This document shows positions 30,072 to 30,770 of a stretch of DNA of 64,000 bases, piece by piece. The notes beneath the pieces are model-generated. The model ran no database searches. It was not told the origin of the DNA and worked only from the letters and a program-made list of their open reading frames with translations. Both the position numbers and the translations under genes were made by a program. Origin of the DNA: Escherichia coli (GTDB taxonomy: Bacteria > Pseudomonadota > Gammaproteobacteria > Enterobacterales > Enterobacteriaceae); assembly GCF_003334405.1 (NCBI RefSeq), contig NZ_QOWM01000004.1; one strand, given 5' to 3'. How positions within the stretch are numbered: the stretch's first letter is position 1; each line of letters opens with the position of its first letter.

Positions 30072-30770
30072 TTGTTATGTCTTATCCCACGGTATTTAAT
30101 ATGGTTCATTAGGATGTTTATTTCTTGATTTTGCATATGAGTATATTACCCCCCCCTCAAAAAAATAAATTAATTAAAATGATGGCTTATATAAAATAAA
30201 ATTTAAAGCAAGGAATCTCAATGGATGTTAAACAAAATGAGATTTTGTGAAAGCAATAAATTATTGACTTCGTTTTAGATTTGTTTAGCTATAATGTTAT
30301 ACATTCAAATGACTGAACATCCTGTAATTAAAACATAGCCTTTATGCTACTTTGTGCCAATTTGCTAAACATTATGGTTGCCTTTTTATATAACGATAAT
30401 AATGAATATAAGCATGACATGAGAATAAGGTTTCAATTTTTGAGTTATATAGGAATGATTTAACCTGTTCCTGGCTAAAATACATATAACCGGATGATGA
30501 CTAAACCAAAATACATGTGCGTTAAGTATTGAAACGGACGTGTGGCACGGCCGTTGTTTTTATAAATATGTTAACCGTTATAAAATAACGTATCAAAAGT
30601 CAAGTGATCACATTTCAAATATCAAGTTGATAGTATTAGTCTGGTGATTATTTATGGGTGACAATAAAAAGACAGTATTAATCATCCATAGAGATAGTCT
30701 CTGCACTTTTATTTCCATTATGCTAATGCCTTACTGAATTATGAAGCATTTCTTAAGTATCCAACTTTAG

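Follow-up and report, generated by a model that had tools for sequence, protein, structure and literature searches.

PhoP-activated promoters such as those of mgtA and mgrB carry a (T/G)GTTTA-N5-(T/G)GTTTA box about 12 nt upstream of the -10 element, oriented toward the gene. The expression of iraM, which codes for the anti-adaptor protein IraM, has been found to be PhoQ/PhoP-dependent (PMC5740661, PMC5775216, PMC10948607), with a 20-fold, PhoQ-dependent induction (PMC5740661) and, in Shigella, a fall of ycgW to 0.09 of the wild-type level on deletion of phoPQ (PMC5775216). Repression of iraM by H-NS is cited in PMC6064147, and a genomic SELEX survey reported an H-NS site in the spacer between iraM and ycgX, to which it also assigned a “constitutive promoter” (PMC3946193). 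The control of iraM by H-NS and PhoP is already published, and is taken here from this literature. Phage 21 and e14 duplicate the 3′ end of icd together with its terminator, and in icd-integrating lambdoid phages (phage 21, 4A7, 1H12, ev017, and others) the final ~165 nt of icd, followed by the same terminator as at the locus described here, adjoin the arm sites and integrase. Stx2 phages have, next to stx2B, homologues of IraM that are 65% identical in amino-acid sequence, and another is found in an E. albertii prophage.

We examined a window of 64,000 nt of E. coli DNA, the window being the whole stretch analyzed, in which icd (28395-29645, plus strand) is followed by the minus-strand iraM, a 699-bp spacer, ycgX, bluR, and bluF; the order icd-iraM-ycgX-bluR matches that of E. 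coli. The features on which the argument turns are the following.

29654..29696, plus strand: icd terminator, repeat copy 1, with a perfect 9-bp stem
29697..30560, no strand: iraM-ymgK block of 864 bp, bounded by the two terminator copies, a present/absent polymorphism
29748..30071, minus strand: iraM, anti-adaptor protein IraM, 107 aa
30068..30136, minus strand: candidate 22-codon upstream ORF, unannotated and on weak evidence, its TGA overlapping the iraM ATG (ATGA)
30115..30131, plus strand: PhoP-box-like match TGTTTATTTCTTGATTT, 2 mismatches, varying between lineages
30149..30156, plus strand: poly-C tract (G8 on the iraM strand), variable in length among near-identical alleles
30221..30250, plus strand: micro-ORF of 9 codons, MDVKQNEIL (ATGGATGTTAAACAAAATGAGATTTTGTGA), with AAGGA 6 nt upstream of the ATG
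30271..30287, plus strand: PhoP-box-like match CGTTTTAGATTTGTTTA, 2 mismatches, identical in 5 lineages
30328..30372, minus strand: ymgK, RefSeq small protein of 14 aa, MFSKLAQSSIKAMF
30518..30560, plus strand: icd terminator repeat, copy 2, with a hairpin at 30533-30555 and then a T-run, decayed in this allele
30608..30718, minus strand: ymgL, RefSeq small protein of 36 aa, 52 nt downstream of ycgX
30717..30745, minus strand: TTCATA-17-CATAAT, the “constitutive promoter” assigned by genomic SELEX (PMC3946193), its -10 hexamer overlapping the ymgL ATG
30771..31175, minus strand: ycgX, DUF1398, phage protein family (PHROG 413 at E 1.5e-41)

The spacer (30072-30770) is best read, with a probability of roughly 0.8, as a patchwork of old phage-derived DNA by the icd integration hotspot, already annotated and largely explained. 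Its GC content is 29.3% against 48.6% for the window, within the lowest 0.2% of 699-nt windows, and its longest ORF has 39 codons, which agrees with the initial annotation of an AT-rich stretch of about 700 bp with no ORF above 60 codons. The homopolymer runs noticed there are both real, the C8 run at 30149-30156 being the sole G/C homopolymer of at least 7 nt in the 64-kb window and the A7 run lying at 30159-30165. The further suggestion that this is H-NS-bound xenogeneic DNA is supported by the low GC, by neighbors from phage families, by the presence or absence of a whole block between strains, and by the H-NS site that had already been published (PMC3946193). Among 5426 complete E. coli genomes the spacer is matched in 5066, with at least 80% covered in 3855, and about 1354 carry the K-12-type allele. 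In E. coli K-12 MG1655 the counterpart is the iraM-ycgX intergenic region at 1212004-1212702, which includes ymgK (b4738) and ymgL (b4739); the tract that was checked is identical and in the same gene order, at a constant offset of 1181932 (window position equals MG1655 position minus 1181932). The two genomes differ on the far side of iraM: in the window icd is intact and immediately upstream, with e14 missing, while the terminator of MG1655 comes after e14 and the icdC pseudogene.

This arrangement bears on the published placement of iraM on the e14 prophage (PMC4045071). In the window iraM comes directly after an intact icd, without the e14 prophage in between (28395-30071), and the annotated end of e14 in MG1655 is reached before icdC, which leaves iraM outside the e14 boundary. 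For both reasons the statement in PMC4045071 is imprecise, and correcting it is one modest use of the present analysis. In other strains the spacer and its surroundings collect insertion sequences, with IS1B between iraM and ymgK (L009 747-1444), IS200C just 3′ of the icd terminator, and ISEc39 within ymgL (L010 1939-2397 and 2664-3872).

The spacer also holds annotated genes: two minus-strand small-protein genes, ymgK and ymgL, both overlooked in the initial annotation, are already present in RefSeq and are annotated at equivalent positions in MG1655 and in strain 504239. Immunoblots of LB cultures carrying chromosomal SPA-tagged fusions have detected both YmgK and YmgL (PMC6001520), and the minus strand is therefore transcribed and translated within the spacer. 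The amino acids of YmgK are identical in 5 lineages, with 2 synonymous changes, and ymgK forms part of the most conserved block of the spacer (~30273-30372). About 11 of the 36 residues of YmgL vary among the 5 lineages, and a 41-aa version occurs in strains without iraM; the alignments give little sign that YmgL is under purifying selection, despite its detection by tagging. The plus-strand orf27+ (30654-30737), antisense to ymgL, is open in 5 of 5 lineages. Other frames of 24-39 codons within the spacer were rejected as genes: orf39+, orf37-, and orf24+ each have stops or frameshifts in at least 3 lineages, and orf35+ is broken in one.

The boundaries of the iraM region are set by a 43-nt direct repeat, whose two copies are 84% identical and 864 nt apart. 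Copy 1, the icd terminator itself, folds at -18.4 kcal/mol (z = -4.2 against shuffles), and none of the lineages and phages examined has a break in its stem. Copy 2 folds in this allele at -11.7 kcal/mol (z = -0.3 against shuffles), a weakness due to changes on both sides of a single stem pair, which is now an A.G mismatch; the stem at 30533-30555 is thereby divided into 5 + 4 bp, of which a terminator scan recovers a 5-bp sub-stem only. The terminator-like hairpin that had been noted as the second repeat copy is correct in its location, in being a repeat, and in its T-run (the U-tract GTTTTTAT lies immediately 3′ of the stem, 30556-30563), but in this allele the stem is broken and gains no stability over shuffles. 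A perfect 9-bp stem (GGGCGT-ATGGC-ACGCCC) is present at copy 2 in Survcare321, CFSAN061770, and A3, and the O26 allele has one C.A mismatch; the exact perfect form was found in only 772 genomes, with differences at 1-2 positions in another 1681. Four ancestral differences separate copies 1 and 2, all of them outside the stem. Because the stem of copy 1 is perfect wherever it was examined while that of copy 2 varies, copy 2 looks like a duplicate under relaxed constraint.

As a separate observation, the loop of the icd terminator (29678-29682) exists in two reverse-complement forms, ATAAC and GTTAT, the same loop being seen in L006 and L015. Both forms are found among E. coli alleles and among icd-integrating phages, and constitute a hairpin-loop inversion polymorphism.

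The DNA between the two copies comes and goes as a unit. A single-copy junction, with the block absent, occurs in 1037 of the 5426 complete E. coli genomes, and in JA0265 and AVS0790, which lack iraM, the icd 3′ end (icdC) is followed by one terminator copy, the right flank of copy 2, ymgL, and ycgX. It is because these empty sites keep one copy that the 864-bp block can be recognized as an insertion or deletion bounded by the repeat. Homology between the icd phages and the window ends at 29698, which is the end of the repeat. IraM matches PHROG 4407 at E 4e-51, and by such profile matches both IraM and YcgX are assigned to phage protein families. A search of the genome collection with IraM returned, apart from a contaminant contig of 558 bp, only the copy in the E. 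albertii prophage, and so no outgroup that would polarize gain versus loss of the block. The contig in question (L012, NZ_MTSD02000045.1, a low-coverage contig of an Oceanospirillum linum assembly) encodes IraM residues 1-47 with 100% identity and is almost certainly E. coli contamination.

Searches for further traces of a phage were negative within their scope. Local alignment for an icd 3′ remnant upstream of copy 2 scored at the shuffle mean with no offset standing out, comparison of the spacer (30075-30780) with 50,697 phage records at distant sensitivity gave no match, and the ORF list and annotation contain no integrase near the block. With no icd remnant by copy 2 and no phage homologue of the spacer, an origin by simple integration at the icd core and later decay would need an extra deletion ending just past the icd stop codon. 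A phage-type origin of the repeat is our best inference rather than a demonstrated fact. In strains without iraM, a hypothetical gene of 759 bp immediately precedes icdC in the icd-icdC island that carries sitABCD (L003 1114-1872, L013 282-1040), and its relative position is matched in phage 21 by a hypothetical gene that is likewise 759 bp long. The two genes are likened here by length and position, which suggests that the sitABCD island is a relic of a phage-21-like prophage.

Read along the minus strand, the patchwork begins with ymgL, the small ORF 52 nt after ycgX, continues through a worn second copy of the icd terminator, and ends in some 450 bp that hold ymgK and probably the iraM promoter and leader. 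According to the literature cited above, the iraM gene is silenced by H-NS and turned on via PhoQ/PhoP, in low Mg2+ or under osmotic stress. The 864-bp block may have arrived through a phage-type event at the icd terminator; alternatively, recombination between the copies may have removed it where it is absent.

Among the alternatives, the one that survives best is compatible with a relic origin and holds that copy 2 has been maintained as a functional terminator, acting on the minus strand or on both, at which ycgX-ymgL transcripts would stop instead of reading through into the iraM promoter. The position of the hairpin, just downstream of ymgL and 48 nt past its stop codon, is what such a role would predict, and in strains without iraM a single copy lies between the convergent icd and ycgX-ymgL, as expected for a bidirectional terminator; the sparing of the stem by the 4 ancestral differences between the copies points the same way. 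The minus-strand tail is, however, merely TTTCAATAC, and the minus-strand fold reaches -9.7 kcal/mol (z = -1.6), while most iraM-carrying genomes have a mismatch in the stem. Termination of these transcripts has also been placed elsewhere, as a bicyclomycin dataset contains a significant Rho-dependent region inside ycgX (MG1655 1212983, minus strand; PMC7815308), corresponding to window position 31051. The Term-seq tables of the same study list no 3′ end at the copy 2 hairpin on either strand, nor any 3′ end elsewhere in the ranges checked (MG1655 1211600-1211699, 1212000-1212299, and 1212400-1212599), which include both predicted hairpin ends; the absence counts as weak evidence in cultures that silence the region. 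Copy 2 may have a residual terminator role on the minus strand, but a terminator maintained as such is unlikely.

A different history for the repeat would leave phages out of it. In this account a local duplication or template switching at the hairpin produced the second copy, and the iraM block was captured by illegitimate recombination. It draws on the same negative results, namely the lack of an icd 3′ remnant upstream of copy 2, of an integrase, and of a phage homologue of the spacer, and also on the gathering of IS1, IS200C, and ISEc39 at the site and on the flipping of the loop between alleles, which shows the hairpin taking part in local rearrangement. Against such an account, the right end of the repeat falls where the phage-borne icd/terminator homology ends, and the cargo, iraM, is itself a phage accessory gene. 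We consider it unlikely, and keep to a phage-type event as the source of the repeat.

Within the patchwork, the promoter of iraM deserves separate treatment. From the PhoQ/PhoP dependence of iraM its promoter is expected in or next to the spacer. The initial annotation had proposed a PhoP-dependent iraM promoter here, which agrees with the published dependence, but the spacer offers no canonical PhoP box to go with it. The search for such boxes gave no match that was perfect or had 1 mismatch on either strand, and the two matches with 2 mismatches, both on the plus strand and so pointing away from iraM, are not above chance (0.8 expected from shuffles of the spacer, p ~0.2). One of them, at 30271-30287, lies at the edge of the most conserved block. 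The leader RNA of iraM folds no more stably than shuffled sequences.

Upstream of iraM there is something new, if minor, in the variable length of the poly-C tract and in the 22-codon upstream ORF that overlaps the iraM start codon. Tract lengths of C7, C8, C9, and C10 were read directly in four strains, whose alleles share at least 99.6% identity outside the tract. For a spread sample comprising ~1380 K-12-type alleles, match lengths of 95-99 nt against a 96-nt query suggest that about half differ from C8; lengths beyond C10 are derived from match lengths only. In other lineages the tract is interrupted (C4TT, C5T, CTC3). The variation could be real slippage or homopolymer assembly error. On the iraM strand the G-run lies 78-85 nt upstream of the iraM ATG and forms a Shine-Dalgarno-like element 12 nt upstream of the ATG of the 22-codon ORF. 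None of the 5 lineages interrupts this ORF, but most of its changes are nonsynonymous, and by our own estimate a frame of this length would arise by chance in such AT-rich DNA with a probability of ~0.12. That the tract acts as a mutable switch, its length tuning iraM expression, is a long shot; if true, strains, or individual cells, would differ in how stable RpoS is.

There remains the proposal of an unannotated transcript from the plus strand, signaled by the micro-ORF or the hairpin, which would be a small RNA or an mRNA for the 9-codon frame. In the K-12 allele the layout is coherent, running from the PhoP-box-like match at 30115-30131 across 10 nt to a 5-of-6 -10 hexamer (TATATT, 30142-30147), then to a Shine-Dalgarno sequence and ATG, and ending at the copy 2 hairpin with its T-run. 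The spacer has 4 ATG ORFs preceded by a Shine-Dalgarno-like motif where shuffles give 0.9, though two of the 4 are the validated ymgK and ymgL. The elements do not hold up across lineages: the box varies (TGTTCA, TTATTT), and the hairpin is destabilized in the two commonest alleles. The micro-ORF with its Shine-Dalgarno sequence is indeed present where it had been noted, but neither its start codon nor its frame is conserved across the 5 lineages. Its ATG is ATA in three of the five (Survcare321, CFSAN061770, and A3), two of which have also lost the Shine-Dalgarno sequence, and in a fourth, O26, it is truncated by a TTG to TAG change. A chance occurrence is the most economical reading.

Structure and expression data add little to the plus strand. 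Rfam gave nothing above thresholds on the spacer, the sub-threshold snoRNA and leader matches seen at permissive E-values being taken as chance, and the plus-strand segment 30300-30568 folds no better than shuffles (z = +0.5). Both checks that the idea had called for came back empty, with no plus-strand 3′ end near the hairpin in the published Term-seq table searched and no micro-ORF entry at 12121xx in the Ribo-seq supplement searched (Stringer 2021), from which ymgK is also absent, so that its sensitivity here is low; the SMRT-Cappable-seq tables likewise have no entry at the iraM/ycgX spacer. As the expression datasets searched come from LB or M63 cultures, in which the region is silenced, missing 3′ ends or ribosome signal are weak evidence. 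No plus-strand gene lies upstream of the copy 2 hairpin in the ORF list or annotation. A new plus-strand transcript or micro-protein is thus unsupported, a proposal that we find scarcely credible, and probably nothing functional is encoded on the plus strand of the spacer.

The spacer is of little significance in itself, being the known H-NS-silenced, PhoP-dependent control region of iraM with two small genes already in RefSeq. It is of modest use in defining iraM as a discrete 864-bp block between copies of the icd terminator, lacking from about one-fifth of complete E. coli genomes, and in drawing attention to a variable poly-C tract upstream of iraM as a possible source of differences in the general stress response between strains.

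Set beside the systems described at the outset, the locus is a partial likeness of each. Like the mgtA and mgrB promoters, iraM is PhoQ/PhoP-dependent according to the literature, and half-site-like sequences are present; unlike them, the best matches in the spacer have 2 mismatches, run in the opposite orientation to iraM, and are no commoner than chance. With the Stx2-phage IraM morons, which are H-NS-silenced accessory genes, iraM shares a homologous coding sequence (65% at the amino-acid level), AT-rich DNA, and an organization as a single unit opposite in strand to its neighbors. The phage and E. albertii copies differ from iraM of the window in that their Shine-Dalgarno sequence, AAGGAAA, is strong and no upstream ORF overlaps their start, and the DNA upstream of them is unrelated to the spacer. 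The closest parallel in architecture is with phage 21 and e14, where the icd 3′ end and terminator are duplicated; here too a direct repeat of the terminator flanks foreign DNA, the repeat stops on its right side exactly where the homology carried by the phages stops, and the empty sites are single-copy. The block nevertheless departs from that model in carrying neither integrase nor arm sites, in having no icd remnant beside copy 2, and in a repeat of ~43-50 nt compared with the ~215 nt (165 nt of icd plus the terminator) carried by the icd phages.
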